Source: Amphiscolops sp. MND2022
Taxonomy: Eukaryota
Length of the DNA stretch: 64,000 nt
Assembly: GCA_964187785.1 (NCBI GenBank)
Contig: OZ076409.1
Location: 25,422,001 to 25,486,000, forward strand
Reading direction: 5' to 3'
Every line of letters begins with the position of its first letter. Position 1 is the stretch's first letter. Under the pieces are notes generated by a model. The model was not told where the DNA came from. It saw only the letters and a list, made by a program, of their open reading frames with translations, and did not search any database. A program made the position numbers and the translations under genes. Below are positions 1,517-62,123 of this stretch, piece after piece.

Positions 1517-1734
1517 TGTGAAAGGCAAAGGTCAAACTGCCACCTTCTACCGAAATTGATCCAGACAGAGAGTTGTTTAAATTGTTTGTAAACAAACTCT
1601 ATCTAATTAGATTTCTGTCTATTTTATGTTTTTTATACGATGTTGATACCATAGTTCGATGAACCACGATGGAATACAGTCGAAAAGATATTTACAGACC
1701 ATATCGTTCTAACCATAGATTAGAGAACTTAACA
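1517..1734 (+). repeat. 5' LTR of degenerate Gypsy element
   Basis: Starts TGTG, ends AACA, followed by tggcgc at 1735. Aligns by eye to 4681-4901 (aaggtcaaac...caccttctaccgaa...ccatatcgtt...aaccatagattaga). Confidence 0.88.
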
Positions 1735-1819
1735 TGGCGCAAAAGGCAAGATTTGCATTTCCTTTATATTGTGTAAAATCTTTTTATCAATAAACCAACC
1801 ACCCATGGCTACAGCAACC

Positions 1820-3950
1820 AACGTAGAGCTACGGTATTCGGAGGACACGGATTCAGTTCTAACAAAATTAGAAAATGAAGGCTACAGAGCTAGTAAAAAG
1901 AAATCAAAATTCTACCAGAAAAACACTATATGACTGGGACATACATTTTGGCAAGATGGAATTAGATCAAAGAAAAAAGACGGACGCCATCAAAAACCTA
2001 AATCCACCAATGATTTCCAAAACACTGAAATCTTTTCCTGGAGTAATACAAAATTTCGCAAAAATCATACGAAATCTATCCGAAAAGACGGACAACATGA
2101 AACAGTTATTAAAAAAGGAACAAAATGGATTTGGATGGCAGAGCGGAATGCAGCTTTCAACAACCTAAAAAGAGAACTTACGCCACAACTGTGTTTAGCT
2201 CATTACAGTGTCAACAAAGTGGAACGCAGATTTCAACAACCTAAGCAGAGAACTTACGTCAGAACTGTGTTTTAGCTCATTACAGTGGCAACAGTGAACT
2301 GAAACCCATAGCTTTTGCCAGTCGTTGATTGAAAAATGCCGGAAATTTATTCCGTCGGGAAAGTGGATGTGCCAGCAGTTTCTTGGGTCTTGGATAGATT
2401 AAACCATTTCGGATATATTCTGAAAGACACAGCCGGTAAAGAAATCAAATTCACCAGTTTCGTTTGCCGTAACCCAACAAAACGCGGACTTAAAAGTCAT
2501 TTTCGAAGAAGTATTCGTCATCAACGCCAACACGCATTTTGCAACGGTAAGTGGTCGCATTGGACCAATTTTGAACCAATCAGAATGCGGGACGCGGAAA
2601 AGCCGGTAAACATACGCACGCGCCAGTAGATACGCGCAACTGCCAAACAATCAGTCACCATTCGCATTCAAGTTTCACTGCTAATTAGATCAAAACCGCA
2701 GACATTCACTGTCCTGCTCATTTTCAACACAAATTGAACGATAACAACATTAATAGTAAACCCAATTGAGATGTCATAGGGGCGCAGTCGACCAGTCACT
2801 GATCATTGGGTTGCAATTGCATAAAACACGACAGACGGAGCGAGGAAATAGCTGTCCACTATAAACCACTGTACACAGATAAACAGGGTAATCGAGAAGG
2901 ATGCAATCAGCAATCGACAACAAGAAGATAACATTTGATCCGTCCAGCTGTATTTCATGCACGACATGGAAATCCGTATCAAAGAAACGGCGGCAGACAC
3001 AGACTCGATCGAATTTCAATGTTGCCTTTAAGACAACAATATGCAACACATCCCCGAAGACTACACACAGTTGGCAAAGAATTTCACGCACTGCTCGAGA
3101 ATAACGATGGTCGAGACCCGGATCAGCGTCCCAAAGAGACTGCGTTACGCCGCACTGAATGCTTTACGTTTTGGCCATCCAGGGATCAACAAGATGTGCA
3201 GCGATGCAGTAATCTTCTGGAGGCCAAACATGCTGTCCGACATACAGAAAAACGCAAAAACCTGCCCTCACTGTTTCTATGCTGTTGAGAATTTCAAATT
3301 TCAAATCCCTAGCGCCGAAAAATCAAAAATTGAAGCAACTAAAAATCCATCAGAATTTCAAATCAATTTCAGGGGAAATTAGATAAATATTCACCTCAAT
3401 TCTTTTTTTCATACTAGTCGCCGTAGGTAAAAATAGCCACTGGCCCGTTGCAAAACACTGAACAAACACCAACCACGACACGGTAATACCATTCCTACGT
3501 GATTACAAGAATGTATACGCGTACCTAAATTACTTAAATTGGACAAAAGTAGCGCGCGCGTCTTTCTCCGAAAAGAATATGAAAGACTTTGCAGTGAACA
3601 CAAAATAATCCGAAGATACTGTACGTCAAATCTACATACAGCCACGGGATTGGATGAAAGAGCTATCCAATCAATGAAAGTCTTGGTATATTTTGAAGAC
3701 AAACAAAAACTACGATAAAGCATCATATGTCTTTCGACTCACTACCCAATCGGAGACGAAGAAAACCCTCTTTGATCTACATTTTGGACGAAAATGCAGA
3801 ACCAAATTATCTAACGTGAAAAATACTGTTTTTGTTGATTCAAAACAATTGTCGGTCTATATCACATGCAATTCAGCAGGGAAATAACGCACCATATGGT
3901 GATGTCAGAAAAGAAATCATTGATCTGAAGCATCGCCTGAAAAAGAGGCA
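1820..3950 (+). pseudogene. pol remnants (RT C-terminus/RNaseH, integrase) of degenerate Gypsy
   Basis: LKSFPGVIQNFAKIIRNLSEKTDNMKQLLKKE parallels LKSFLGSIQHLAKFINNLSKKTDRMRSLLKKE in the 15.4-kb element. HPGINKM...CPHC integrase Zn-binding motif at 3041-3382. Many stops and frameshifts. Confidence 0.85.
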
Positions 3951-4680
3951 GCAAAATTGATAAAAAACCGCTTACTCCAATCATCGGAAATGAACACACC
4001 GTAACGGACGATGAAAACAAAATTACACAAAGGAAAGTATTATCTAACCCAATACCCTTTCCAAACGCAGTTACACCGACAAAACGGATCAGCACAAGAA
4101 CGACGACGACAACGACAACAGACCGCGGCGCCCGGAAAATACTGAAAACAGAACAAGCAGACTGGTTGAAGAGAAAGGAACAACCCCGAAACGAGAAAGA
4201 CCAGTTTACAAGTCCCGACAAATCGGCAAACATCCCATGAACCTCAACTTGAGCATGATGTCAGAGGACGAAGACTGGGAATGCTACAACACTAACGGTG
4301 GAAAGCACGTCCACACCAACATCGACGACGAAGTTCAACTTTTGCCGAAGGAAACTAACCGACACTAACCGCGGAGACAGGTATAAACACAGAAAAACTA
4401 ACGAACCTCACCAAACGGTGAGAAAGTCGAAAAGATTACCTTACTCAAAGTAAACCGAAAAATAGGCGGCGTACCATACTATACCAGTAAATATAAAATA
4501 GAAAACAGATAACCGTTGTATTTTACAGGATAACCAGAGCAACCAACCACAGACATACAAATGCGGTGATCTGGAAAACTGTAAAATACGGACAATACTT
4601 GAGAAGTTTCTGCCAAACTGTGAAATACGGAATCACAACCTCAAACAAGCCCGCACAACCGATTTCATCCGGAGGGGGAA

Positions 4681-4901
4681 TTTGAAGTGCAAAGGTCAAA
4701 CGGTCACCTTCTACCGAAGTTGATCCATACAGAGGGTTGTTTAAATTATTTGTAAACACTCTAATAAGATTTCTGGTTAATTTATGTTACTTCATACGAT
4801 GTTTTTACTTTGATACCCTAGTTCGTTAAACCACGATAGAATACAGTCGAAGAGTTAATTGCATACCATATCGTTTTAACCATAGATTAGATATCCTTAG
4901 G
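4681..4901 (+). repeat. 3' LTR of degenerate Gypsy element
   Basis: Follows the polypurine tract at 4671-4680; diverged copy of 1517-1734. Confidence 0.85.
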
Positions 4902-6201
4902 CTAGATAAAAAAAGTTGAAATCTTGATTTCCATAAAAAATTAAAAACTTTTAATTGTGAGTAATGAGTACAATTTCAGATCATTGAAGTAAGTTCTATT
5001 GCAGTACGTTTGGAAGAATAGAAGCTCTACATTAGATAACAGTTACTGATCAACTAACTTGGAGAACATTTGTTTTTTATGTGAAAAAATGTTTTCGAAC
5101 TGAATCAATGGACCTGAAGAAATTCAATATGATAGAAGTTGGGCAAATAAGGGTTTATTCGAATGCGCTGTTCTAGATGTTCGAAGACCGATTTTTTATA
5201 CGCATTTTTTACACATTGCATTTTGATGCAATAAAGGAAAGTATCTTAAGACGTATCCTAATTTTTTTACCAGGACATTGCGTCAAATTGTTTCTGACTA
5301 AATTTTAAACTCAATTACTAAGCTACCATCCATTCGTGTATAATTACTAAGCTACCATTCAATGGTGTATACCAACCAATATGCGCGAGTTGCCAGCCAG
5401 TAAATGTAAAAATGTTTAGAAAATGTGAAAAAAGTGTAGAATTGGATTTTTTTCAAGGAAGTACGGAAAGTAGGGAAAATCTGGAAGCTGAATTATTTTT
5501 GAAATTTGTCTCAACGACTGATTATTAGAGCAACGAAAGAAGACTGTCAAACATAAACGGATTTTAGGCTGCTTCCTGGACTTCATCTAAGCTTTCTTTC
5601 AGTTGGCGGTTGATTAGTTTCTAACTTTTCTGAGCTGAATAGGCCAGAGTTCAAAGCATTGTATAACACATTAGGTGGGATTTGAATCAATTGCAACTCG
5701 CGGCTAACGGTTAAAAGCTCGACCAGAAAGTAGCGTAGGATTCATTTTCACGGCTGGAAAGCTATCGTAACAAAGAGACGGAACGGATTAAAAATGTGTC
5801 TTCAAAAGAACTTGATGAATTGAAATCTGAAAAAATTGGGCGAGTTTTTTGGATAGTATCTGAAAGACGCTATGAAAGATTTCCTCGGAAGGTAAAGAAC
5901 CAACTTCATGGATAACAAATGCCTCTAAGTATATTTTTTCAAAGCTTCTCTGAATCTGAAACGAAATAAAAAGTGTGGAATTTGGGCTGAAAGCTTTCTC
6001 TAGATACGTCTGTGGCACTAAAACTCTTTTGGATAAAAATCGATTGCTAAAATAATAAGCCAGGTGTTTGAGATGAATTTGTTGATAAGGTAGCTCTAAT
6101 TTTAATTGAGCAACTTTGTAGCAACATGAGCAACAGGCGCTTAACTGAATACACTACAATGCCCAGATTAACTTCATTCAGGATTATTTCACTCTCCCTT
6201 C

Positions 6202-6306
6202 AGTAGTATATGAATTGCTGATCCTGGCCAGCCGGACCATCAAAATTAAGCATATTTTCAAGGCAAACCATCAAAACCTAGCGTTTTTTCATAACTGAAA
6301 AAATTA
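6202..6306 (+). repeat. Left terminal inverted repeat of Polinton
   Basis: agtagtatatgaattgctgatcctggccagcc...caaaattaagcatattttcaaggcaaa...tagcgttttttc is the reverse complement of ~13550-13654. Confidence 0.95.
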
Positions 6307-6727
6307 ATAACTTTTTGGTATGGAGGATGAGAATGCGAAAAAAATTTTCAATGCAATAATATTAAAATTTCTTGTAAAGCTCACAGCAAAGAAAAAATAC
6401 CAGACAGTGTACCAGACAGAGCTGTCTAGTATTTTCTAATACCCGACAGAGCTGTCTAGTATTTTCCAATACCAGATAGAGATGGTTCAGTATTGAATTC
6501 AGTATTGTTTGATACGTTTTCAACAGCCAGTTCATGAAAAAATAACTGTTAAATGAAACATGCGAAGCGAACGAAGTTGTATGCGAAGCCAGTGTATTTA
6601 TCATTCAATGAATATGTTGAAAAAATTAAAAAACCTCAAATCCACAAAAGAAATATTTTTCACTTATTTCATGAAAAATATTTATTGAAAAATTTTAATT
6701 AAACTAATTTTTCTTTAATAAAAAGGA

Positions 6728-8706
6728 ATGTAAAATTGTAGAGTTTGTAATTTAAAATTTAAAAATCCTTCAAATCCGATCATTATAACTCAGTAAAACA
6801 TCTTGAAAAATAAAATCAAATATATTGTAAAAAATGTAATTTATACATGCCTCTATCAGATAAAGATTCACATTTAAGTTCAAATGATCACAGGAACAAA
6901 ACTAAACAATTACATGTTTGGTGTGAAGGTTGTGTAAAATATATATCTGATGAAACAACACACTTCCAAAGTGAAATTCGTTTACAGAAAAATCAACAAA
7001 GAAATTTTAGTGATTATGGTATGCGAAGCACCTCTGGTGTAAAAATAATGTGAAAGAAAAAACATAAATGAAATATGGATATATACTAAATAATTGTGAA
7101 TGAAAAAACATATACGAAATATGGATATATAAATAAATCCAAATATGAATACGCAGAGCGCCTACAGTAATCTTGATTATCACATAAATGAATTACTTAG
7201 TAAAAATTTTTGTTCCCGATATAATTGTCAATTGAGTTTTTTCGCTAAGGTCACAAAACACAACAACGGAAAAGAACACATGATTCACAAGTGGGTAAAA
7301 TCAGACTTTAATTATAATCACTCTATTGATTTTTATTCAAATAATAACACATTAATACAAAACCTAGACGACGAATAAATAGAAAGATCAGGTTTTCAAA
7401 TTCAAGAAATAGAAGAAGCTGTATTAGAAATATATAAAGTTAATGATATTCAAGCTAGTTTTTATGTTGAGTTACCAGAAAGTTATAAAAACAGTTAATC
7501 AATTTTAAATTTTAAAAATAATGATCAATTATGTTTTTCATGGTGTATCATAGCTCATCTTCACCCGGTTGAGGATCATAAAAATAGAACTTCAAATAAT
7601 GTTAAGTATATGCATACGTTGCATACCGAAGCCTTAGAATTCCCTATGAAAGTTAAAGATATACCTAAGTTCGAAAAAATGAATCCTAGAACTATAAATG
7701 TAATTGAACTCACTGGAACAGTTTTAACACCAATCCACATAAATACAAACTATGATTAACCACAAATAGTATTGTTATGGTCTGAAAATCACTATTGCCT
7801 AATAAAGTTGCATTGTCTAATAAATAAACATTCATACATGAAACATGTATGTAGATGTTTAACAGCATTCAGTTCACAACCGGTTCTAATTGATCATTTA
7901 GATCGTTGTCAAAAACAAAAAACAACCTATATCGCATTCAGTTGGAAGGATCACCCAAAGTTTGAAGACCACCACATGTAAGTTCCTATACCAGAAAGAG
8001 TATATGCAGATTTTAAATGTTTCGATCAACCCCAAAATACAGCAAAGCTGGCTTCGCATGCCGAACCGCATGACCCAAATAATCCCAACGTGTTGTTTAA
8101 ACAAATTCCAATTGCAGTAGGATTTTATCTTATTTCACAATTTGGAAATCAGTATTACTCATACTTCGGCGACGGTTGTGTAAAATGGTTTGTAAATGAA
8201 ATGTTGACACTAGAAAAACTTGCAAATACCTATTTCCAAACAAACTTAGAATTACAAATAACTCCTCAAGAAGAAGAATCATTTTAACTTGCAGAAGAGT
8301 GATGGCTTTGCGAAGAATCTTTTGATTCACTTACACAAAATACTAAAGTAAGAGACCACGATCATCTTACTGGACATTACCGAGGAGCAGCCCATTCTAA
8401 ATGTAACATAAATGTAAAACAAAAACAATCAAGTTTTATTCCAATATTTTTTCCTAACTTTTTTGGGTATGATTGTCATATTTTATTTGAACAGCTCTTA
8501 ACACAAGCTTTCAAAAAATTCCAAAGTCAATGGAAAATTATGTTAATGTACAAGTAGGTTGTTTAAGGTTTCCAGATTCATACCGTTTTTTAAGTAGTAG
8601 CTTGGATAACTTTGTTAGGAGTATAAACAGTTTCCCAATAATGCAAAGTGCCTTTGGAATGTATGAATTAACTAAAATGAAATTGGGTTATCCTTAAGAA
8701 TACTTT
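6728..8706 (+). pseudogene. Protein-primed family B DNA polymerase, N-terminal part only (Zn-finger-like, terminal-protein region, endonuclease VII-like insert, exonuclease start)
   Basis: Fragments NNDQLCFSWCIIAHLHP, LEFPMKVKDIPKFEKMN, KVRDHDHLTGHYRGAAHSKCN, IFFPNFFGYDCH (Exo II-like) and YP*EYF at ~8690. Sequence then becomes non-coding, with no polymerase palm motifs. Multiple stops and frameshifts. Confidence 0.85.
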
Positions 8707-8854
8707 TATTGGGTTTGATTTATTAGTTTTTCTGAGTAAAATCACTAAGCAAATTTATTAAGAGCACATATTTTCACTCGGTTTTGTTTTCTACACCTGA
8801 GAAGTTAAGCCCTTAGTGAATTTGCTCAGTGACTTATTGATTTTTTTGAAATAA

Positions 8855-9085
8855 ATGAAGTGTTTAATTTGTGATAAAAATAGCGAAACTTCGTTGTGTG
8901 ATGATTGTAGTAATAAAAAAGGGTGTAAGGACTGTAATGATTTGGAAACAGATTTTAGTAAGCATAAAAACAGTAAAATATATAGTACATGTACAGAATG
9001 TTCAATAAAAAAGCAAAATATGAATTTCGCAATGAGGAATTCAATAAAACATAATTATCAAAACATATCAAGAAGCTGCATTTAA
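8855..9085 (+). CDS. Small Cys-rich (four CxxC pairs) putative zinc-binding ORF of the Polinton; possibly the N-terminus of the ATPase gene
   Basis: CLIC, CDDC, CKDC, CTEC in a 76-aa ORF directly upstream of the ATPase. Confidence 0.5.
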   Translation: MKCLICDKNSETSLCDDCSNKKGCKDCNDLETDFSKHKNSKIYSTCTECSIKKQNMNFAMRNSIKHNYQNISRSCI

Positions 9086-9218
9086 ATGATACTAAAGTTA
9101 AAAATGTTTATAATGATGAAAATACTATAAAAAATAACAACAAAAGAATATAAATAATTATAGTGATGAAAAAATTATAATCAGCGATAATCATAATAAT
9201 GAAAATACTGAAGATGCT

Positions 9219-9818
9219 TTGCTGTCTAATAGAACATTAATAGTTGGTCCATCATTGTGTGGTAAGACCCATTTGTTAATAAACAAATTAGAAATAATGC
9301 TCTTGAATAACCCTAAAAAACAAATAAAAATAATAACTAGATCTCCGGAACAATACGAGAATACAGCTCTGCTGGCCTTCGGTATACAATTTGAAGACGT
9401 TTCAGTGAAAGACGATCTGGAAGATAGAACAATACACGATTTTCAAAACTGTTTTGTTGTGTTTGATGATATGTTGGATAGTAATAAAAAACTAATAGAT
9501 CCCTTTTTTACTAGGGGAAGACAGTGATTTAATTGTTAATTATTTATCACGGTCATATTTTGATTTACCTAAACGAACAATTAGAAACAATTCAAAAACA
9601 ATAATTTTACTTCAACAAACCTTGAAAGATATAGAGACATTGCTGGGTTTGATATGTCGTTTGATGAATTCAATGAAATATACAGAGAGGCATGGAAAGA
9701 AAAATATATTTATTTTTTAATGAACAGGTTGGAAAATAAAATTGGTAAAAAATATGGGATTTGTAATGAATCTAATCTGGAGTATAAAATATTTAATCCA
9801 CGAACTGATCCTTTCTAA
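9219..9818 (+). pseudogene. A32/FtsK-like genome-packaging ATPase
   Basis: Walker A RTLIVGPSLCGKTHLL, Walker B CFVVFDDML and FFTRGR Arg motif. After a frameshift: YLSRSYFDLPKRTIRNNS; stop TAA at 9816-9818. Confidence 0.9.
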
Positions 9819-10776
9819 CTGAAAAAGCCTGTGATGTTTTGGTGTTGATTTGTTGTAATACATTCATATTCCAGGAGTTTATCAATAACTGCTATGATTT
9901 GTTCACTAAGCATAGGATTATCATCACCTCCTATTTTTTCTAGCACGATTAACTTGAGTTGATCAGCAAGCTCATCTGGATCTGATGGAAGGAAAACAAA
10001 TTTTAATTCATTTCATAATTAGGATAGTTGATAAGGAATCTCTCGATATACATAGAGAATCAAATTTTTAATGAAATAATGTCGCTTTGATATTTTGTCT
10101 CAATAATTTATCTTATATTTCATTCAATTAAATAAATTATTAATTAGGTTCAAGTTTTGTGGTTGCGAGTCTAGCTGTGCAATACTTATAAAATATGAAA
10201 GATCCGGATCATTTAAAATATTCGTGTTACCATTCTGGTAGGTTAGTGTTGAACCTTTGACTTGTACTAGTTGCGGATTGTTGGGGTTAATTGTGAGTAA
10301 ATTTGAATAACCTTCTTCAGGTTCTAAACTATATTGACTTCTGTTTTTATCATTAAGCAAATTAGAAACTGTCCTAACTATACTAAAATTAACTGTATTT
10401 GATTTAACTAGGTTAGTAAGAACTTGATTATTACGATTTGTAATTTCATCATATTCTATTCTTTCTTTATTCGATTTCTGTGAATTTTTATTCAAAGCGT
10501 TACTCAATTCTCGTATTACTCTAGTTTGGCCTTGTATTGCTTGTGTTGTTGTTTGGGTAGAATCACGTAATGCTTGTATCTGCTTTCCAGATTCTAGCTC
10601 TGTTTGGTTTTGGCTTTGTTTCTGATTTTCAGTAATGGGTTCAAAAACTTCTTCCATGTTGTAATGAAAGTCTTGATTCCCAAGTTTCTCTTTCAATCTT
10701 TCTTGGCGGAGTAGAGATTTGTTTCTTGCAATGTTTTCAACTTTTCTAAATCATCAAGATTTTGAATTGAATACAT
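9815..10776 (-). pseudogene. Polinton-type ORF of unknown function (coiled-coil N-terminus, DPxEL..QLKL C-terminal motif)
   Basis: ORF 10124-10696 plus frameshifted ends. C-terminus LPSDPDELADQLKLIVLEKIGGDDNPMLSEQIIAVIDKLLEYECI resembles a motif I recall from Polinton accessory ORFs. Confidence 0.6.
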
Positions 10777-10829
10777 AATATATTTAGTATTCATAAGAAT
10801 TTTGAATTTAAATTTAATTATTGTGATTC

Positions 10830-11257
10830 ACTCAAATACAGGCCTTTAACCAGCAAACCTTAAAGTTTGTATAAACCATTTCCTTGATGAACAAACTTTA
10901 TAATACCAGGAGCAGTTGCAGCTATCAATCGAAGATTTTTACTAGCTGCTGCAGTTCCAATATTTGCTGCTATTTCGAGTGCTCTTCCAGGATTAATTAT
11001 TGTTTTTTTTCCGACACTTTTAGCAGATGTAGGTTTCGTAGGTGTTTAAAACAATCACCCAATCTTCCTGCTTGTATAGTTTGATCTGATACTATAAGTT
11101 ACCTATTTCTTTCACACGTTACACAAGTACCTCCAAATAGTTGAACTGGCATGCCAGTTTTTTTATTTTCAGTAATATCTCCACGAATATTTGTGGTAGC
11201 GGAACAATGTTTTCCACCAACACGATATGAAACATTTTTAAAATTACTAAAGCTCAT
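10830..11257 (-). pseudogene. Small Polinton ORF: Zn-ribbon-like N-terminus plus amphipathic LGDxFK segment (possible virion core/membrane-active protein)
   Basis: Manual translation: MSFSNFKNVSYRVGGKHCSAT...GTCVTCERNR*...QTIQAGRLGDCFKHL, frameshift, then NPGRALEIAANIGTAAAS...GNGLY. Function is inference only. Confidence 0.45.
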
Positions 11258-11332
11258 TTATTAGAAAAAGTTATTGATTTTTGTCAACTTCGCACAAACC
11301 TTTGGTTTGCAAAACTTTGGTTTGTATCAGAA

Positions 11333-12294
11333 TTAAATCTTAGCGATTTGAATTGTAAATGTTATTGTTTCGGAGTTTTAAATCAACCGGGCTATGATGC
11401 GTCCTCAAGGAAAAATTGAATATTATTCAGTCGTGTTTTGTTTATCTTTTTGTACAAAATAATATTGGGATCTTCTATAATTTCATATCCTGGAGGTGCT
11501 TCTAAAACAAAGTTTGTTCTCGTATACCATTAACATTTGAACCATCTACACTATCACACTTGAGATGAACTTTGTCTGTGGCTGTTATCATTACTGGTTT
11601 TTCTGATTTACGAGTTCCTTCTGAGTAGTCAGTGTTTAAAAATCCTAAAAAGTTGTTAAGTTCAGAATTGAAATGTATGCTAAAAGAAGTTATTGGAACT
11701 GATTTCATTGATATTGTGTCTGCTTGTATGTTAAGTTCAAAATCAAAATTAGAATCAGAAAGTATTTGTTCGATGGTATTATTTATATCAACTAATTTAA
11801 ATACTCCTGGTGTTTACTCAATTTCAAAGAAATCATTTTTAATTCCAAAATCAGGAATAATATTGGTTGTTTTGTCTTGAACAATTTGAATAATTATTTT
11901 CTTTAGTTGATCAAAATCTTTTCTAGTAAATTTCTTATTTTCAGAAGAACTATCAACTATAAAATTATTACTTGTTTTATACAGAGGTTTTATATAAACA
12001 CTCAACATTCATTACTAAATGAGTGTCAACGTTTAATGATTTGAGTTATTCATCTTTTAGAAGAATTTTGAGTTAATTGTTGATGGGAGTTTTTTTATAA
12101 ACTGGATTATATACTTCTAAACTTGTTACTCCCATCATCCATTGTTCTGGCAGCTCCAAGGGAACATCGGATGAAAAAGATTCTTTTTGTTTAGTCATTT
12201 TGCATTCTAGAGTTTCCTGAGGTTTTGAATGTGTTGACTCAACAAATTCTTGATTAGATTTTGCAATACTCAATATAAGATTCTTTTTTATCAA
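11333..12294 (-). pseudogene. Minor capsid (penton-like) protein of Polinton
   Basis: N-terminal PQETLECKMTK..VPLELPEQWMMGVTSLEVYN and C-terminal TDKVHLKCDSVDGSNVNGIRE..PPGYEIIEDPNIILYKKIN..IQFFLED..PVD match the Polinton minor-capsid pattern as I recall it. Frameshifted. Confidence 0.65.
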
Positions 12295-12393
12295 TAATTA
12301 CAAAATTTGATAGATCCATTTATTAAGAAAAAAAATTGTTTGAATCCAGTAGCGGATATGTTATTTATAAATTCTTGGTTGTGTTTTGATAAT

Positions 12394-12916
12394 TTATTTT
12401 GGAAAACTTTTCGGATTTTTTTTGTTATCTTTATTATTTTCAATCTCATGCGGGTCCAGCTTTGCTGTATTCGGATAATCTGGTTGTACCGGGGGGCAGC
12501 TTATTTGTATAATTTTGAATTGAGCTGAATAAGTTTTAATTTTTTCAATTTTTAAATTTAAATTTTGATGATATAGATTCAAAACTGCGTTTTTAAAACC
12601 TAAAGTTTGAGTGAGATATAACACATACAAACAATACGCTGCACAAAAACTATCATTTTTCTGAATTTGATATTCTGAAAAAAGACCTTTTTTTATTTGT
12701 TTCATTAAGTTTACTGGAGGTGGGCATCCATATTAACGAAATAATTTTGATTTGAATACATAACCCAATGTGTTCCTTTAGTTGAATGTAAGTTAACTAT
12801 TTCACAAGAATCATGAATATTTACTTCATTAAGTATTTCTTTCATTTTTACATTAGAACTTGCTTCATTTTCAATCCATATTTAGCAACAAAATCTTTGA
12901 ATGATAAATATTTCAT
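12394..12916 (-). pseudogene. Adenain-like cysteine maturation protease
   Basis: KGTHWVMY (catalytic His), YF..YGCPPP, and QIQKNDSFCAAYCLYVL (oxyanion Gln and catalytic Cys). Frameshifts at ~12735 and ~12870. Confidence 0.85.
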
Positions 12917-13549
12917 TCAAGAAAAAAAATTTTGATGAAGTTTTTTTCTACGCTTTGCTTGTAATAGTTATTTTTCATCGATTTCAATTTTTTTAATATT
13001 GTTAAAATGGGAAAAACCGATTTTTACACCTGTTTTGACACCTGGTATTTAGTTGGTTGATTGTATAAAAAGCCCTCAGAACCAAAATTTGTGTAACTTT
13101 TAATTATCTACTACTTTTGTTTCTAACGTTTTTCATTAAAACTATTTCCTGTTGAGACATTGAACAATGTTATTTTTCCCATGTTGAATATGTCTGCATT
13201 AACATTAAGTATAAACGAATTTGTTTTAAAATTTATCGAGATATTTGTATCAGTTTTCTCAAGTTTGAGATTTCTGTATCGGTTTTTTCATTTGTCTCGG
13301 AAAATTCATATTTCTCGAAAAATTCAACATGTGACGCACTTGGTTCGACTTGATGTTATTCCAGTTTTTTATTAATACCAAGCACTTGTTTCCACTTGAA
13401 TGCTACTTTCATTCCAAAAATTGTTGCTACACAAATTTTTTCTATTACCATCCACAGCAACATAGAGGTTGGTTAGTTTATTACTTCTTGTGACAAACAT
13501 TTTCAAAATTTGCGTAATGAAAATTTTTGTTCAGTGATTTTTGATTGTG

Positions 13550-13654
13550 TTAAATTTTTAGTTGCGAAAAAACGCTAATTTTTGATGATTTGCCTTGAAA
13601 ATATGCTTAATTTTGTTGGTCTGGCTGGCCAGGATCAGCAATTCATATACTACT
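13550..13654 (-). repeat. Right terminal inverted repeat of Polinton
   Basis: ...ggctggccaggatcagcaattcatatactact followed by TSD cccttc. Confidence 0.95.
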
Positions 13655-13920
13655 CCCTTCCACCAAAAATTTAACCAAAAAAGGGCAAAAACTTTCTCGA
13701 CACATTAGGTGACGTTAGTTAAGACATGGTACAGTCTCGAAGATAAAGTCCTGAAACAAATCTCAGAAGACAAAACAGGATCCCCAATAAACAGAAAGAT
13801 GCGAACTTTCTTTCAGTGGGATTAGAAAAAAAGGCGCACTTAATTGAAAAGGACGATCCTAGTATTGGACGGATTCATGATCTTGAATAATACTCTAATG
13901 TTCTGAGCATTGTTGAGCAG

Positions 13921-14377
13921 AACAAGCCGGAAACGGCATGCCATATCCAAGGCTCAAAAATAGCGAAAGGTAAAATGAAAGTGTCAAAAAACTCAAAGTA
14001 TCAAACTCACAAAAAGAGTTCCGAAACACTTTCGAAAAACCGAAACGACCGAACTGCGCGCTAAAAGGGGGGGTATTTCGGATTTTTAAACATCCATTGT
14101 TGCAAAACATCAAAAAATAGAAGGGACCCTTTGGAATTTTTCAACAACCATTCTGTGACAATGCCAAAAAACTGAAAAGTGGGAACCTTTGATCTTCCCC
14201 GGTATTGTATAGAACGAGGAAAAAAACTTTTTTGATTCTGTTCGCTAGGCCAAATGGTTCAATTTGACACCGTAAACTTTTGTAGAACTTCGTAGATCTA
14301 TTTTGGTCAGTTCGGGTGGGTTGAAAAAAAGAGTCACTATATTATTCGCGTTTCACTTGATGAAGTGCCGACTAAAA
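13921..14377 (-). mobile_element. HINE/Helentron-like non-autonomous repeat, copy A (reverse orientation)
   Basis: Ends gccgactaaaa (reverse complement of the 5' end ttttagtcggc) and begins aacaagccggaaacggc (reverse complement of the 3' hairpin end). 14240-14377 is the reverse complement of ~23822-23955. Confidence 0.7.
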
Positions 14378-15141
14378 CTGCGACGCTTTAGGTTTGAAAA
14401 ATAATTAGCAAATCCTTTTTTTTTGCAAAAGCAATTACAGTGAATAAGTCGCTAAGTCATTTCGGAGTTTTGTCATTAGTATACTAACGTGGAGCCCATT
14501 AGAAGATTGATCTTCCAATTAGGAATTCCTAAATGTCGGCAATGAGGGAGATTTTGAAATACATAAATATTCACATACCTCCACAGTCGTCCAAGGGCCC
14601 CTGAAAGTTCTAGTTTCCATGAAAAAAAAACAGGCTTGATCTATTTTCCAACAAAAAAAGTTCATTGCAATGCACGCTAGGAGCCAGGAAAGTTCCAGGA
14701 GCGTACACGGAAAAACTTTGCAGAATTACATGATGATCGTTTTTTTTTCAGTTTCAATCGAAATAATTGAAAAAGTATTCACTTTTTTATTGATTTTGTT
14801 GACTCGATGACATTGTTTTATTGTTTTCATGCTGTCGGGCCTCAATTTCTTAGTTGTCATTATCACCGTCATTCAGATGTAATCGTGATGCAATCGTGAT
14901 GCAATCGTGATTTAATTGTGCACTCGGAAAGTGATACCAGTTTGAAGTTGAAGTAGCAGAACCTAAATTTGCTTTACATGGGAATGATAGTAGACTTGGT
15001 AAGGTCTCAGTTGCCCATACAAATATGAAAAATGCTAACAACTCTCACAAAACTTCAAAGGTTCAAATTAATTCCGCGTTTAGAAGGCATTATCCAGTTT
15101 GCTGGATAGAAAATTATTGCAACTGGGAACTTTTGACCTCG

Positions 15142-15225
15142 GTCGTTTGGTTGAACGTTTTATAAACTCATAAAGAGGCTTGGTTAAGTTTGAAAAAAAC
15201 GCTCAAAAAGTTTAAGACGTTTCAG
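15142..15225 (+). repeat. Left copy of 84-bp flanking duplication of the Gypsy element
   Basis: gtcgtttggttgaacg...gacgtttcag is identical to 21147-21230 except for one substitution (gctc/cctc). Confidence 0.95.
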
Positions 15226-15429
15226 GAGAAGAAGATGCCACTAAGAGGATGAACCTGCCATAGTACCTGCCAGTTGTCTATCGTAAAAAGCCTTACAGTA
15301 TGAACATTAGTTGAAGTTGTATTCTATGATACAGTATAGCTAACAGTTCGTATGTTAACGATCATTACTTTGTGTTGATTTGAATTACTTTTATTCCATT
15401 CTTCTTACTCCAAGTTCTCCGTAATAACA
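15226..15429 (+). repeat. 5' LTR (lacks the terminal T of TG)
   Basis: gagaagaagatgcc...ccgtaataaca; the 3' LTR starts tgagaagaagatgcc. Confidence 0.95.
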
Positions 15430-15448
15430 TGGCGCAGTCAGCAATCTA

Positions 15449-18400
15449 ATGGACAACCCAGACCCAAACACCTCAGAACGATCCGACCAACAAGCCGCAA
15501 ACCAGACGATAATGAACCAGACGACGGCAAATAGACTGGAGAAGAACAAATATAAAATTCCGATTTTATCGGATAGAGAAACGGATCTCACCAAAATAAA
15601 CCCACGAATGTGGTGGGAGCAGATTTCGGAATATATACACCTCACATATAACCGAAATCTAGAAGAACTGATGGATCAAGGCGTTGACCAAATGGACCCG
15701 CATACGGTGTATCATATCAAAGGAGACGTCATCTGGGCTCTAGGCCCCAAGGCCAAACATGAAATTATGAGAGGACAATGGGGCAAAGAGCTAAAAGACA
15801 TTGATCTCCCAGAAATGCTGAAGCTATTCAAGAAAACATTCATACCAGCAAGGAATGTATTCCACAGCCGGGCACAATTCTTCAATATCCAACAAGATGA
15901 CAACGAAACTTTAGACGAGTACTGGAAAAGATTAGTGGACATCGAGCGGAAATGTGAATTCAACAGCATCACACCGGAAGAAATTATTACATACAAGTTT
16001 GCAGCAACAATTAACGACAAAAAAGCCCGAGACAAATTTAGAAAAGGACCGCTGAAACTTCGAATGGTACTCGAAACCATCGAACAAGACAATTACAACC
16101 GCAAATACGGAGACAAAAAAGCAAACAAACGACCCCGAAAAATCAAACTGGAAAGTTCATCAAGTGAAGAACAAGTCGCCCACACACAACCAATACGGAA
16201 ACAAAAAACCGCCGAAACGTGGAAGAAGAAAATGCCAAACCGTATTTGTCGCTTTTGCCGTAAACCCAATTGGTCAATGGAACATATTTGTCCAACACGG
16301 AGAGCACAGTGTAATAAATGTAAGAAGATGGGCCACTTCGCCAAAGTGTGCAAATCCAAAACCGTCAGCCTGATACAAAAAGAACTGCCAACGGACAGCG
16401 ACACCGAATCATGGCCTGAAATTGACCACATCCAATCCGTCAACGGCATAAATCGGATCGATTTCTACAAAGCGATACTATTGGTCCAAGGACAGCCAAT
16501 AGAATTCAATATTGACACTGCCTCTCCGATAACGATAATACCGCCTATAATTATTACAGCGGAAATACACAAAACCACAAAAAGTTTTGTAGATGTAAAT
16601 AAAAACCCGATAAAGTTCAAAGGCGAAACCATGGTTGAAGTAAAAACGGAGAAAAGCAAAATAACACTTCCCATATTAATAACCGAGAACAAAAACACCC
16701 AACCCTTATTGGGACTGGATTGGCTGGACAAACTAGAAATCGGGCTACAAAGGAACACGAACACGAACATTATCAGACACATCGAAACATACGAAAGAAG
16801 ACAGAAGATCGTAAAAGAATATGAAGACCTATTCAAAAACAACCAAACGATCAAAGATTTGGCTATCGACATCCAACTGAAAAAAGACACAAAGCCGATA
16901 CAACAAAAAGGACGACCAGTACAGATACATTTTCAAAAAACGGTCAAAAATGAGTTGAAGAAACTAATCGAAACTGAACACCTGGAAAAAACAAACAATA
17001 CCACAGAAAATTGTTTTGTCTCACCGGCTGTCATAACAATGAAGAAAGACAAGTCCGTGAAAATTGCTCTCGATTCAAGAAAACTGAATGAGGCATGTGT
17101 CAAAAGAAAAGCGACAATGCCAAATATGGAAGAACTGATCAGCAAAATATCAGCGGAAATCACCCGAAGCGACGGAGAAATCTGGATGTCAAAGATCGAC
17201 TTGGATTACGCTTACGGACAAGCAAAACTAACCGCGGAGGCAGCCAGACAATGTGTATTTTCGATAATTGGCGGTGATTTCACCGGCCATTACCGTTTCA
17301 AGAAAGGATTCTACGGACTGTCGGATATTCCCACCGTTTTCCAGGAACACATCAACAAAGTGCTAGAATTTAAAACACCGGTCTGGCTAGATGACATTAT
17401 ATGTGTAACAAACGGAACAATCGATGATCACGAACGAGAAATTCGGGAAGTACTCACAAAGCTACAAAACGCCGGTTACAGGGCAAGTGAGAGGAAAACT
17501 GAACTATTCAAACCGGAGCTAACTTGGCTGGGTTATCACATCGATCAAAAAGGAGTGAAACCGATAAAAGATAGAACGGAAGCAATAACAAAATTGACGG
17601 CTCCAAAGAATGCTAAAGAACTAAAATCTTTTCTCGGCTCAATACAACACCTAGCGAAGTTCATCAATAACCTGTCCAAGAAAACAGACAGAATGAGGAG
17701 TCTGTTGAAGAAAGAAACCCGCTGGGAATGGACACCCGAAATTGACGAAGACTTCGAGAGTTTAAAGAAAGAAATAACTGAACCCCCATGCCTGGCCCAC
17801 TTTGACCCGAAGAAAGAAAATTACGTGACGACAGATGCATGCAACACGAGGCTCGGAGCGACACTATAGCAGAAGGAAGGAAAAATTTTCAGACCAGTCG
17901 CGTTTGCTAGCAGATTTCTCACCGACTGTGAAAGAAAATATGCTATCAATGAGTTAGAACTGCTAGGGGCATTATGGGGGCTAGAATACTTCAGGTATTT
18001 TGTGTACGGAAAAAGGGTAAATTTGCTAACAGATCATCAAGCGCTGCAGACTCTGTTAAAACGGAACAGGGCACATAAACAATATAGCGCCAGGTTAACA
18101 CGGTGGTTAGACAGATTAAGCCATTTTGATGTAAATGTTCATTATACCGCTGGTAAAAACATCCCATTGACGGACTACTTAAGCCGGCATCCGATCGTAA
18201 ACACCGATGAAAGCGCAGCGGAGAAAAACATAAGCGGTCAAAACGAAGCGGAATCCGAAGAAGAGTTCGTAATAAACCAAAAACACGGCTTATTTGATTT
18301 CATTCAAACGAACGGAAGCATAAAACGATTCACAGAACGAACCAAGCCGAGACAGAAAATCGACCAATCACAACGTGTAAACGTGAACAAAATAGACAAA

Positions 18401-20734
18401 CTCATTTGCTCAAAATTTCGAAAACCACTGAACAGTGTTAATCAAATCACATCCGTAAATTTTTCAAATAGACTCGCAAAACCATCAAATATGGACAAAG
18501 TAAACGGAATCGACATGCACTTCATATTCAAGAAAAGAGGGCACTCACCAGACACTCTCAAACTCTGGACAGAGAGAAAAAGACTACTGAAACCTGAAAA
18601 AATGAGAATCGTGGGAAAGGGGACAGACAATGAAAGACTTCAAGCATGCCGACCCTCACAGCAAGTACGAAAAAGAATTGTTGAACTAAACGTGCAAATA
18701 TACAACAGATTCTTTAATTTCTGCGAAACGCTGGGTACGACGCCGCTGAAAGAGTTCCAGCAAAACAACTACGAATCCTGGATAACACAGTCATCTGACA
18801 CCGAAAGCCAAACGAGCAATGTCAGACAAGAAAAATGTCCCACAAACGCCATCAAAAAGTTTCGGAAACACGAAACAATAAACTTAATCCGACTGAAACC
18901 AACCGTCAAGACAAACATCCTAGACGATGAACACAACGAGCGGACAGAGGAAACCATCAAAAAGGCCGAAAAAGATTTTGCACTCGACTTGCCGATGTTA
19001 GTAGAAGAAACGGCGAGAGACACAAAAATTCTGAATGCTATCACTGCCGTCGAAAAGAACCAGATTGAGGAGTTTTTTTACCCTTATCGGCCACACAGAC
19101 ATCACCTGACAACCTGATTTGGCCTACTTTTCTATAACGACAAGATCGTTATACCTGAAGCAATGAGAAGCACAATCATCGCCATGCTCCATCAAGGCCA
19201 CCCATCAGCCACAAAGATGGACCAATCGTCCGCAGCCTTCTGGTGGCGCGGTCTATATCGGGAGATAAAGGAGAAAGCAGAAAACTGTCCCAGCTGCAGA
19301 TCGTCAGGTAAGAATCTAACAACGCAATTACCGTCAACGGAAAAAAAAACCATTTAGAAATTTTGTCTGAACCGAATCGAGAAATACAATTGGACTTTGC
19401 TGGTCCAATAAAATCAAAGTCTCGCGGCGATGTATATTTTTTAGTCGCAGTCGACCATTTTAGCAAGTGGCCAACCGCCAAAATTTGTAAAAACACCGAC
19501 ACACGGACAGTTTTAAAATTTTTAACGGAATATTGTTCAGATAACGGAACACCGCGGAGCGTACGCACCGATAACGATAGCTGTTTTAAAAGTAACGAAT
19601 TCGAAGAATTTTGTAACCAAGAAATAATAAAACGCATTAGATGTACAACGAATCTACACACAGGTACCGGCCAAGTAGAAAGAACGATACGGACAATTAA
19701 ATCATTAACTAGAGTAAATATGGCGGACGGCCTAACATTTGAAGAAGGTGTTAAATTGGCGATTAAAACAATTAGACAAACTCCGCATAGCAAATTGAAT
19801 ATGACGCCATTCCAAATGCATTACGGACGTAAGCCACGCACGGCAATAACCAATTTGATCGGCCGACCAGAATGTCTTCTCTCTAATTGGAAAAAAATTA
19901 TTGACCAATTACGTTTCAGCACAACCCACTGAGCTACAGATGTTCACAATTAATGACTCAGAGGGAGAATTGGCAGATTATCTGATCCTTAACGACTCGA
20001 AGAAAAGAAATAGATCGGTAAGCAAGGAATTTAAACAGTATCAATTTTTCGAAAAAGAAAACAAACCAAATGCAATGAAATGCAGATTTAAAACCAACAA
20101 AATACTGACGGCCGTGAATGAAACTAAACACACTATAACAACGTCAGATGGAAAAATAATCCATAAAAAATTAGCGTCGAAACCGATAAAATTTCAGTTG
20201 CCGAAAAAGCCGGAGGAAAAGAAGAAACCAACAAATCGCTGTGTCAGATGCGGAAAATTTAGCCAAGGAAAGTACTGTGACACCCACAAACGAGTGTACG
20301 GTACCACTGACGAAACAAATGAACCGGGATGCAGCTACACCCTTCCAACAATGCCAGAGAAAAGGTCAACTTACAGCGATGTCATAGAGCCGAGCAACGG
20401 ACAAGACGTATCGACGGAAGAAAAGGAACCGCAAGCAAGCAACACCACCGCCACAGCGGAAACGCAACGGCACGAAGAAGAAACCGCACCCGGGATACAT
20501 ACGCCACCACCGTCTACGCCGGTACAGTGTAGCACCAGTTATGGTACGCAACCAACACAACAGGAAGGCGATCAGCAGACGCCAATACGAGCCACCGCAA
20601 GTACCGAAGCTACTTCGAAGAAAAGGACAGCAAGCCCTAGAAGAGGTAACTTAAAAATAGTAGACAAAAAGGAACCAAAAAACACCATAAAATACAAACA
20701 GAGTCACCAGACCTTCGTAGATCAAATAGAATAA
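15449..20734 (+). pseudogene. gag-pol polyprotein with two premature stops and at least two frameshifts
   Basis: Zn knuckle CNKCKKMGHFAKVC; protease IDTAS; RT SKIDL..AY, FYGL, WLDD; RNaseH TDAC; integrase HQGH..CPSC, LDFAGP, DHFSKW, RTDN, VER. Stops at 17867 (TAG) and 19115 (TGA); frameshifts at poly-A runs near 19345 and 19895. Confidence 0.95.
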
Positions 20735-20936
20735 AAGACGCTAAGCGAACCGTAAAATTAGGAGGGGTAGAGTATTTCTAATTGGTTAGGTCGTTTAGAG
20801 TTCTCCAGCCCACTACAACGATTTATGCGACAGCCCTTTCCGAAAATCAAAAAGGAAAACCCAACGACTGATGTCAAGGTCAAGTGGGAGCCCACAGAAG
20901 CTGAACAATGGCTTCCCTGAATTACAAAGGGGGGAA

Positions 20937-21146
20937 TGAGAAGAAGATGCCACTAAGAAGATGAACTTATTAGTTCATAGTACCTGCCAGTTGTCTATCG
21001 TAAAAAACCTTACAGTATGAACATTAGTTGAAGTTGTATTCTATGATACAGTATAGCTAACAGTTCGTATGTTAACGATCATTACTTTGTGTTGATTTGT
21101 TTTACTTTTAATTCATTCTTCTTACTCCAAGTTTTCCGTAATAACA
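20937..21146 (+). repeat. 3' LTR
   Basis: TG...CA, preceded by PPT; near-identical to the 5' LTR. Confidence 0.96.
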
Positions 21147-21230
21147 GTCGTTTGGTTGAACGTTTTATAAACTCATAAAGAGGCTTGGTTAAGTTTGAAA
21201 AAAACCCTCAAAAAGTTTAAGACGTTTCAG
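21147..21230 (+). repeat. Right copy of 84-bp flanking duplication
   Basis: Starts immediately after the LTR-terminal CA; matches 15142-15225. Confidence 0.95.
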
Positions 21231-22677
21231 GTGGGCTTCTCGCCCATTTACAAAAACCAAGTCTTCACCAAAAAGACAGCTAATATTACAGTCGAAGGCT
21301 TTGAAAGCGCTTTTTTTCTTAGTCATGCATATGACAAAAAAGTCACGTGAGCAAAAGTTTTGATCTAAAATTTTGATCAGAACTACAGCACCAATTTTTG
21401 TTTTAAAAACCAATGATTTCGAAAGTCTGGCTCTTTTCTGTCCACCCCACCACCAATTTTTTTGAAAGTAAATTTCCTTTAAAACTTTATGCTAGCCTAA
21501 TCAAAAGTAAAACCTTCTTTCATAACGGGAAGTTAACGTCTATTAGACATTTTTTGCTTGAACAAAACATTGTTCACGCATTTTGACTATACTTATGCCC
21601 GTATTAAGTGTTTTTCGATGACTCAAAACAGGACGCTGTTGATTTCTTCATCCAAAATGCGTGACTACATATTGAAAAAGTGTGAACAAAGTTTGTATCT
21701 GAATTCTAAATTGTCACACTGAGAATAAATGTAAAATTGAAGCTTTATGGTTTGTATTCGAAACATTTTGTTATAAGATTTTCACTAATTTTTCAAAAAC
21801 AAATTGGTGGTGGGGGGGGGCAGAAAAGAGCCAAAAGTCTTTCAAATCGCATGTTATCTTGAGAAATTTTGGAGTTTTGTGAAGTTTATTACACGATATC
21901 TCGAAAACTACTGGTCAGGAGACAAACCATCAATCATTTTTGTAGTCTTGATAACAATCTTTAATTTTCATTTTGTTATATACTTTTTGTTTATTTTGTG
22001 TTATACCTTCTGTAAATTAATTCCGATCAAAAGTACCCCTGTAATTCTGAGCAAAACATTAGAAAATTTTGCACTTTGGACGTGTGTCAATTGACTACGG
22101 AAAAATATTTTGCGATTTGAATTATTTCGGATGTGAAATCGTGTGTTTTTGCGTTTTGGTACCCTGGTGTAATATTTATGTAAACTGTAGCCTAAGCAAT
22201 TATTTCACTCAATTTTGTTGAAGTCACATATAATCATACAAGCAGGTCCTAGGTAACCAAATTGTTCAATTTTCAAACAAAACTTCATGGGGACAAAGAC
22301 CGTTTAAGCAACCTCGACTACTACGATGCTTCGCAATCAATGCATGAAATGTTTTTGATGCATTTTTGCAAGTATTTCGTTCTTTTTTACGTTCCTTTCT
22401 AACCTGGATATCGAATCATTCGAACGAATCATATTTTTCAAGAAGCGTTGTTGAATCAGCAAGGTTGAGGAACATTTCCCGATTTGACCTACATACGAAA
22501 GCATTCAGCTCAAGAAATGTCATATAGATTGACGTATTTAATCAATTCAGTCAAAGAATTACTAAACAAAAAATAGCTCTATACGAAACATACAATTACC
22601 ATGGTATGTTTATTGTATGGCAACCATGATTTTCCTATTATTGTTTTTGGGGGAACACATTATGTCGATGGTGTACG

Positions 22678-23368
22678 TTCATCTCACCCCACGTTCATTT
22701 TACCAAACATTTAATTTATTCAATTCTCAAGTTTTTTTACTACTGTCAGACAATGTCAATCTTTGTGACCAATTATCCGATTAGATGATCAAAAAGTGCC
22801 TGCTGTGTGAACCACGAAAACGGACAATCTTTTCTTTTTCTCGTTTAAATTTACTCGTGTGAAACGGAGCTCTCTTTGGGCAATCGAATATTCAACCACT
22901 GCTGGTGTGCATCTTGAGTAAAAAATTTCCTGAACAGCTTGTTCACTCAACTTGAGTGAAATTACGAGAAATTACGTGTTCCGTTTTTTCACTCACGTAT
23001 GGTTTGTCTAGGCATACTTGAAGTATGCCTAGACAAACCATACGTGAGTGAAAAAACGGAACACGTAATTTCTAGCTGAAACTTCGGACCATCCATAGTT
23101 GACGATTCGATTATGACACGAGAGCGCTCATTTGCGCGATATAAAAAAGGTTAAAAATGTCAGTATTACTTCTTTTACAAGTATTACAAGTCCGATTAGT
23201 GGAAAGTTTGTGCTGTGTTTTCGTGTTTCACATGGCAGGCTTCGTTTGAATATCTAATCGTTTGAATATCTAATTGGATAATTGGTCACTAAGAGTGAAA
23301 TTGTGCGGCAGTGGTGATTGATTTCAATAATTAAATTGTGGGGTTAAATGAATGTGGGGTGAAATGAA
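22678..23368. mobile_element. Fold-back/MITE-like element with long degenerate inverted arms
   Basis: ~22678-22830 is an imperfect reverse complement of ~23205-23368 (tcaccccacgttcattt/aaatgaatgtggggtga; gtgaccaattatcc/ggataattggtcac; tgtgaaccacgaaaac/gttttcgtgtttcaca). Confidence 0.65.
22967..23073. repeat. Perfect palindrome: 53-bp arms, 1-nt spacer (G23020)
   Basis: agaaattacgtgttcc...ggcatactt-g-aagtatgcc...ggaacacgtaatttct, no mismatches seen. Confidence 0.97.
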
Positions 23369-23821
23369 AGTGTGGAGAAATGATATGGGGTGAAATGATT
23401 TGTGAAATTTTTTGATACGCATCATCTTTAGAACTAAAAAGCAAAGCCTAGTCAAGTAATACAGACTTTGATGACTTCATTAGATATTCCTCAACCAATC
23501 GAAACTTGAAAACAATACCACAATTTTCAATTTTGGTATTCGATGATGAATTATCTATTAATGATCTACATTGAAGCAAAATTTGGTGGAGTGTAACCAA
23601 AGAGTTAAGGCTGATTGTAAAAAGAGTTGGAAGGTTTTGTGTTCTTTTTGTGCTTTCCCTACTCATAGAAGATCAATGTGTTCGTTGTAAATGCCGGAGG
23701 TCAAAGTGGCGATTTTGCCGGTTTCACGTTGAGGTCATGCAGCCGTTTATCATGTACCATTTACCATTCACCATTTAAAATTTTAGGAAAAAATATGCAT
23801 TATCGGAAACATGAAAGTTTA

Positions 23822-57929: not shown

Positions 57930-58419
57930 CTAAAATTGTTTTGTTAACTGTTTCATCGTTGTTTCTTCATTTTGATGTGGAGTTCTGTCAAAAAGACTGG
58001 TTTTGAAATAACTTTTGTTTTGTTATTGGTGGTAGTAAATACGGCAGTACCTAGGTGAACTCAGGATAAATGATAAATATGATAATATAAACAATCCTAG
58101 CAGATGTTCAGTAGGCTTTTTCAAGAGCAAGTACTTGTGCCTAGTCAACTTTTTGGAAGTAAGCTGCTCACAATTTGAAGGCTTTCCTACAGTTTTGGTT
58201 GCTTCTATGATTCAAAAAGATTCCCATTCAAAATTTTTAGAAAGAAATAAAAATTGTAAAATATGTCAAACAAGCATTAGTTCAAAAAGTCATTAGTCGT
58301 TAATTTTGCAAGCCATTGATGTGTTACCAGACAGAAGCGTCCCAGACAAAGACTACATGGGATTTGGTTGAAACACGAAACTAAACACTTTGAAAGCTAT
58401 TTAAAATGATGTTACTTAC

Positions 58420-58473
58420 GATTTAGACGACGATGTTCGAAACGTTGGGATCCGAGTCTCAGGAGTTGTTGAA
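58420..58473 (-). CDS. Mucin 54-nt linker mini-exon
   Basis: STTPETRIPTFRTSSSKS; acceptor ttctag, donor gtaagt; paralog of 61773-61826. Confidence 0.85.
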
Positions 58474-58650
58474 CTAGAATGATTAGACAAGAAATTACTT
58501 TCCACAATATTTGATCATGTAACCTCCCCATTGTTTAATTCAGCGAACGCATTTCTAATTCAAATTTTTCTTCTTTTTTTCAACCTTTGAAGACGATGCG
58601 ACCCGGAAGCTTATTTCACATGTTGATGTTCTGAAGCATGTATTACGGAC

Positions 58651-61128: not shown

Positions 61129-61772
61129 TAGACTGTTTCTTTTAACAAGGCTTTACGCAATGAAGCATAGAATCTCAGAGTTTAGGCAATTAGTACCAGT
61201 ACTTATTTACAAACACGTTACATCATTTCAATCGCTCTATCACAATATTAGTTGCTTTCTGTTAGTTACTTATTAAGGTACGATGGCTCAGTTGGTGACA
61301 TGACAATCATTCAATGATCATACATATAGAAACCTCTAAGTTATAGCATGGTCATAAAATGTTGTCATTTCATGTCATGTCTGGAACTAATAAGTTCCAT
61401 GCTGTTCAGGGTGACAGTTTTGGATTCATATATGAATTTTGTTCACTCTATTTCTCTTCATAAAGTCAACGTATTCTTTGTTGAATCAACAGCTTCAATT
61501 TTTGAGTCACAAAATCAGTTAACTCGAACATAATCACCGTCAGAATGTGTGAAAAATGTTTTTTTTTTCAAACTGAAAAATAGTTCCCAAATAGAGGTTA
61601 TCTTTCAGTTTTGATTAGGCCAGTGTGGAAGCTTTTTTGTAAACTTCTTTCAAAATCTACTTATGGCGGGAGGACAGAAAAAAGCCAAGCCACCTAATTT
61701 AACAGTACCAAGCTGTTTGGTTGAAACACAAAACTAAACACTTTGAAAGCTATTTAAAATGATGTCACTTAC

Positions 61773-61826
61773 GATTGAGACGACGATGTTCGAAACGTTG
61801 GGATCCGAGACTCAGGAGTTGTTGAA
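61773..61826 (-). CDS. Mucin 54-nt linker mini-exon
   Basis: STTPESRIPTFRTSSSQS; donor gtaagt, phase 2-2. Confidence 0.85.
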
Positions 61827-62123
61827 CTAGAATGTTTAGACAAAAATTACTTTCCACGATATTTGATCATGTAACCTCCCCATTGTTGGATTCAGCGGGG
61901 GGGGGGGTGTTGATTCTAACTCTTGATCGTATTCTGCTTTTCATTTGCCGAATAGAAGTTCCTAGAGGAAGTGGTCTAAACTTTGAGTTCGTTCAGACCA
62001 TGCTCGTTCTGATTTCAAAATAATACAGTACTTTCATTTGAATTTTACTTCGTGTTTTCATGAACAGTTTCCTAAGACATTTTTCATAAGTAGTCTCAAT
62101 TACACGTCAGATAAGAAACTTAC

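Follow-up and report, generated by a model that had tools for sequence, protein, structure and literature searches.

In this work, we have examined a Ty3/Gypsy LTR retrotransposon whose insertion is bordered on both sides by the same 84 bp of host DNA, and whose 5΄ LTR has lost its first base. Gypsy elements usually make target site duplications (TSDs) of 4–6 bp. We propose that the long duplication and the defective LTR end were probably produced together, by one aberrant integration of the element's cDNA that was one-ended and was completed by host repair. The event appears to have been a one-off accident and not a property of the family to which the element belongs.

Anatomy and family of the element

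The element occupies positions 15226–21146 of the window, the whole 64-kb stretch of DNA that was analysed, and all its features given here lie on the plus strand. It keeps the features of the Ty3/Gypsy elements (Metaviridae), namely LTRs, a primer binding site (PBS), a polypurine tract (PPT), the order gag-PR-RT-RH-IN and a DD(35)E integrase; what is missing from the Ty3/Gypsy norm in this copy is the TSD of 4–6 bp and the first base of the 5΄ LTR. The 5΄ LTR (15226–15429, 204 nt) begins without the T of the TG that opens the 3΄ LTR, and ends in CA, while the 3΄ LTR (20937–21146, 210 nt) runs from TG to CA. Directly after the 5΄ LTR there is a PBS-like site that starts with TGG (15430–15447), and the PPT, a run of 11 purines (20926–20936), is separated by one T, with which the LTR starts, from 10 further purines (20938–20947).

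The interior is taken up by a decayed single gag-pol ORF (15449–20781, a span set by comparison with natural relatives), in which gag, a zinc knuckle, protease, RT, RNase H, integrase and a long C-terminal tail can be recognised. It is damaged by in-frame stops at 17867 and 19115 and by frame changes near 19345, 19900 and 20680. Pfam searches with pieces of the window and with the natural relatives P0137 and P0126 placed gag first, then protease, RT, RNase H and integrase. In a similarity search with P0126, the top hit among solved relatives was the Ty3-G Gag-Pol (PDB 7q5b, E 5.6e-62). The element is a decayed single-ORF Ty3/Gypsy LTR retrotransposon, and it is a member of a multi-copy family. 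Its best family match, 94% identical over the RT, stands at the head of a 90%-identity cluster of 106 protein fragments, a number that counts protein fragments and not element copies, of which the family has many. DNA of closely related copies was found in none of 10 viral contigs and none of 513 genome contigs. A probe made from the LTR had no match (0) in viral contigs, and the RT piece, compared with metagenome contigs, gave 4 loci from 139 pattern matches, which at 28–39% identity were too distant for use.

The two LTRs differ by 7 substitutions in 200 aligned sites and by one complex block, which measures 4 nt in the 5΄ LTR (15255–15258) and 9 nt in the 3΄ LTR (20967–20975). In the 5΄ LTR, where the block lies about 30 nt inside the element, it gives rise to an 8-nt direct repeat (starting at 15253 and 15265, in the region 15253–15272), and the version of the 3΄ LTR (20961–20978) is a 7-bp hairpin that resembles a motif 56 nt downstream. 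The block has the appearance of a templated insertion into one LTR or the other, and either state could be the derived one. Should the 5΄ LTR carry the derived state, both lesions of its 5΄ part could stem from a single faulty end. An earlier note on this DNA had omitted both the broken ORF and these differences between the LTRs.

The duplicated host segment, its junctions and its surroundings

In the assembled sequence, positions 15142–15226 and 21147–21231 form a direct repeat of 85 nt with a single mismatch (G15201 in the left copy, C21206 in the right one). The 85th base of the repeat, G15226, doubles as the second base of the LTR, which leaves three equivalent readings of the left junction: 84 bp of host DNA followed by an LTR without its T, 85 bp followed by an LTR without TG, or 83 bp followed by an LTR that carries G in place of T. 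With the duplication taken as 84 bp, the left copy spans 15142–15225 and the right copy 21147–21230. The description given in the earlier note, of an 84-bp repeat outside the LTRs with one mismatch, a left end without its T and a right end with a clean CA, is borne out by the assembled sequence. That the 84 bp might be a part of the LTR was considered and rejected; both copies sit outside both LTRs.

The two junctions are of different quality. At the right one the 3΄ LTR ends exactly at CA and joins the host DNA with 0 nt of homology, either to the host or to the PBS. At the left one the U3 end is short by 1–2 nt and is joined across the single shared G, so the homology at the aberrant junction amounts to 1 nt, which is the chance level. 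No remnant of a short TSD of 4–6 bp was found at the left junction, the flanking repeat being of 84–85 bp only. When up to 3 mismatches were allowed, two probes taken from the two ends of the repeat (24 and 22 nt) each hit exactly 2 sites in the 64-kb window, against a chance expectation of 0.00 obtained from 100 shuffles, and the 84-bp unit was not found elsewhere within the window as a dispersed or as a tandem repeat. The junctions showed no significant DNA hairpin, the z values of the 4 pieces examined lying between −1.73 and +1.97, and no Rfam match was obtained within 13500–23500. The flank contains two open stretches in the same frame, of 76 and 59 codons, separated by a stop that lies in the 84-bp unit. 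Homologues of this frame might have revealed an ancestral site with a single copy; neither stretch has a match in Pfam, and a comparison of the 76-codon piece with 1.84 billion proteins brought up one match only, to a spurious repeat protein.

When did the duplication arise in relation to the element? A three-point estimate, in which a stop-free piece of 806 residues was compared with 14 relatives in 70 triples that shared 200 columns or more, gave a terminal protein branch of 3.6% at the amino acid level, which corresponds to at most about 1.7% per nucleotide site. The decay of the protein predicts 6.7 differences between the LTRs, of which 7 were seen, and the corresponding figures are 2.8 predicted and 1 seen for the duplicated copies (P 0.22) and 3.9 predicted and 2 seen for the stops (P 0.25). 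The duplicated copies are less diverged than the LTRs (1/85 versus 7/200), although the difference is not significant (Fisher P 0.44). A single event of a single age is compatible with the counts for the LTRs, the duplication and the stops.

On one side of the insertion site lies a relic of 7.45 kb (6202–13654) that is Polinton/Maverick-like in its hallmarks, and on the other a large mucin-like gene (about 26100–59100), which is encoded on the minus strand and has its 3΄ end towards the element. The terminal inverted repeats of the relic start with AGTAGT, are about 106 nt long and 91.5% alike, and an exact 6-bp TSD (6196–6201 and 13655–13660) bounds it. Viewed by eye, what is left of its ORFs is reminiscent of a protein-primed polymerase and of a Walker-A ATPase, a likeness for which Pfam searches gave no support. 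The mucin-like gene contains open frames of 4049 and 2200 codons with 92% Thr and Ser, TSP1 and TIL exons, and weak matches to VWC and cystine-knot domains; its domains suggest that the host is an animal. A second Gypsy-type element (about 1517–4900) is older and internally deleted, with LTRs that are 81% alike, PBS-like and PPT sites, and remnants of RT/RNase H and integrase about 30% identical to the family of the element at 15226–21146; its 3΄ end is decayed and no TSD of it is recognisable, so it provides no control. To the right of the element under study there are MITE-like inverted repeats (21386–21467 and 21782–21848) and, at 22675–23371, longer degenerate inverted arms that enclose a perfect 53-bp palindrome (22967–23073). 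A direct repeat of 183 nt, 95% alike, has its copies 3.35 kb apart (58363–58545 and 61716–61897).

A proposed one-ended integration and the alternatives

We propose that the integrase would have joined the U5 end alone, at G15142 of the empty site. The terminal CA would have been missing from the U3 end, either because it was lost before integration, for example through imprecise cleavage at the PPT or nibbling of the end, or because it was trimmed during repair, and this end would have been joined about 84 bp downstream by a host polymerase and the repair machinery. A cut just past the T that follows the PPT is a plausible, though hypothetical, source of the short end. The synthesis carried out by the host would have copied the intervening DNA, so that the 84 bp would come to stand on both sides of the element, and the inserted copy would then have undergone neutral decay of about 1.7% per site. 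As described in passages of PMC5618025, removal of the PPT primer defines the U3 end separately, and a fault at this end can for this reason be confined to the 5΄ LTR. A break suffered later would usually be expected to delete far more of a 6-kb element than 1–2 nt at its terminus. The same kind of event, one-ended and with the defective end joined by host repair, had been suggested in the earlier note; the clean U5 end and the defective U3 end speak for it, and they stop short of proving it. Some observations run against a one-ended integration: at the inferred empty site GGT stands at each end of the unit, which is the mark of a tandem duplication driven by microhomology, the duplicated copies are closer to each other than the LTRs are, as would be expected of a younger duplication, and the precedents for the mechanism are all retroviral.

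The GGT ends lead to the possibility that the duplication and the integration were separate events. The element could first have gone in as usual; if its 5΄ edge then suffered a break or a template switch, repair from the empty homologue or from the sister could have copied the 84 bp and trimmed the T. Alternatively, it could have inserted into the junction of a tandem 84-bp unit that microhomology had made beforehand, a small later deletion removing the short TSD together with the T. Of 200,000 random flank pairs, 7.7% share a run of at least 3 nt (P about 0.08). The second complex lesion, only 30 nt within the 5΄ LTR and with its templated-looking 8-nt repeat, also fits such a history, and models of this pseudo-TSD kind are discussed for HERV-K in passages of PMC5488345. 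However, a second event would be required that stopped 1–2 nt from the terminus of the LTR and erased the short TSD, and the clock does not demand that the duplication be younger than the element. It is the lower divergence of the duplicated copies, together with the GGT ends, that leads us to keep a later repair or a pre-existing duplication in consideration as an unlikely origin. That the repeat was created by the assembly, through a duplicated flank or through haplotypes mis-joined around a heterozygous or repetitive insertion, is suggested by the fact that the element comes from a multi-copy family, as the 106-fragment cluster indicates. We consider this quite improbable, since the window contains neither N nor gap, both junctions fall at LTR termini, the neighbouring element retains its exact 6-bp TSD, and the two copies differ at one base, whereas a copied overlap would be identical unless the haplotypes differ. 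Moreover, the tandem-repeat frames of 12 kb (4049 codons) and 6.6 kb (2200 codons) are unbroken, which suggests a high base accuracy. A recombinant, formed in vivo or as a chimera of the assembly from two family insertions in the same orientation, 84 bp apart on two haplotypes, would yield exactly a long direct duplication, with the 5΄ and 3΄ LTRs derived from different copies; the divergence of the LTRs (3.5%) is close to what separates family members from one another (a median of 4% at the amino acid level). Yet the chance of two such neighbours under random targeting is about 1e-5 to 2e-4 (with assumed copy numbers of 50–300 and assumed genome sizes of 0.3–1 Gb), compared with long duplications at about 1% of HERV-K loci. 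A recombinant would moreover leave the missing T unexplained, and the ages already fit one event, all of which makes this origin very unlikely.

The remaining alternatives concern the enzyme. An integrase family that routinely makes long TSDs, by strand transfers that are widely spaced or uncoupled, had been offered in the earlier note as the second possible cause, and it found no support in our analysis. For such a family trait there is this single copy, and passages of PMC8090852 describe somatic insertions of three LTR families in Drosophila with TSDs of 23–26 bp, the meaning of which is uncertain; likewise, according to the part of PMC6911290 on which we draw, the plant tallies of 4–6 bp were pre-filtered for short TSDs and are no bar to long ones. 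Judged from the spacing of its motifs, the integrase is an ordinary one: the E of the DD(35)E motif stands at D2+36 in this copy and in 7 of the 9 relatives (the other 2 end upstream of this position), HHCC is present in 8 of the 9, and the nearest solved relatives are the Ty3 Gag-Pol and the integrase of foamy virus. A defective end accounts for the long repeat without any new enzyme, and we regard a routinely long TSD as extremely improbable. Insertion could also have proceeded without the integrase, either by annealing of PBS/PPT tails, a route of the Tf1 type such as that described in passages of PMC11042837, or from a 2-LTR circle with 84 bp of captured DNA, circles that carry host inserts being described in passages of PMC5041404. 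The right junction, exactly at CA and with 0 nt of homology, bears instead the signature of an integrase. Neither a PBS match in the flank past the 3΄ LTR nor, on inspection by eye, homology on the PPT side was found, and the Tf1 route would be expected to truncate the element. Annealing at the PBS is largely refuted by these observations, and the circle is indistinguishable from a one-ended integration by sequence alone; taken together, insertion without the integrase is highly improbable.

Retroviral parallels and meaning for the family

One-ended integration has close parallels among the retroviruses. In passages of the work of Kim et al. 2010 (PMC2857682), one of 15 XMRV integration sites, that of clone C-3, carried a 273-bp duplication and a 5-bp deletion of the U3 end in the left LTR. 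As at our locus, a long host duplication accompanies the loss of bases, the conserved CA included, from the U3 end of the left LTR; the dimensions differ (273 bp and 5 nt in clone C-3, 84–85 bp and 1–2 nt here), and clone C-3 represents a fresh infection of cultured cells, whereas the element in this window is an old and decayed Ty3/Gypsy copy. For one-ended integrations of ASLV/RSV and of HIV-1, passages of Varadarajan et al. 2016 (PMC5041404) describe that host enzymes insert the second end, often in truncated form, and that the most common outcome for the neighbouring host DNA is a duplication, hundreds to thousands of bp long. The likeness to our locus is again clear: one end is normal and made by the integrase, the other is truncated, and host DNA is duplicated. 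Those events were, however, provoked by mutated ends, inhibitors or a weak integrase, while the copy studied here is natural, and homology was usual at their aberrant junctions, in contrast with the 1 nt of this element.

A natural counterpart is found in HERV-K (HML-2), another inherited LTR element with long and slightly diverged duplications, at about 1% of its loci. Of 451 putative TSDs, 6 measured 61–450 bp, and the empty allele was sequenced for two of them, according to passages of PMC5488345; aberrant integration is offered as the cause of the long TSDs in the part of PMC4422153 that deals with them. HERV-K is a primate element resembling betaretroviruses, and its long duplication is backed at two loci by empty alleles, whereas here it is read from the filled site. 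Set against this retroviral literature, the surprise that the earlier note attached to the insertion was overstated. A natural long duplication with a defective end was not found for any Ty3/Gypsy element in the literature searched, most subscription papers lying outside the reach of the search. This is most likely a failure of integration of a known retroviral type, whose natural Ty3/Gypsy cases are possibly under-reported.

A further question is whether this family has an unusually high rate of failure at the U3 end, so that a sizeable share of its copies are one-ended and carry long host duplications. We consider this distinctly unlikely. It would find an explanation in the sequence around the PPT, where RNase H may often cut past the lone T that stands between 11 and 10 purines, so that plus-strand synthesis would start at GAGAAG, as seen at the left end of the element. 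Purine-rich starts of U3 are not rare. If the family were prone to such failures, it would be a natural source of tandem-like duplications, and many of its copies would be invisible to any annotation that requires TG...CA and a TSD of 4–6 bp. The lone copy described here carries little weight, and it would carry more if the rate proved high or if the long duplication were a trait of the family.

As a one-ended integration, this locus would be a clean natural Ty3/Gypsy example, in an animal genome, of a failure whose workings are understood from retroviruses. It suggests that the rescue of half-integrated cDNA by the host also takes place for retrotransposons in inherited DNA, and that such copies escape any structural annotation with a filter for short TSDs.
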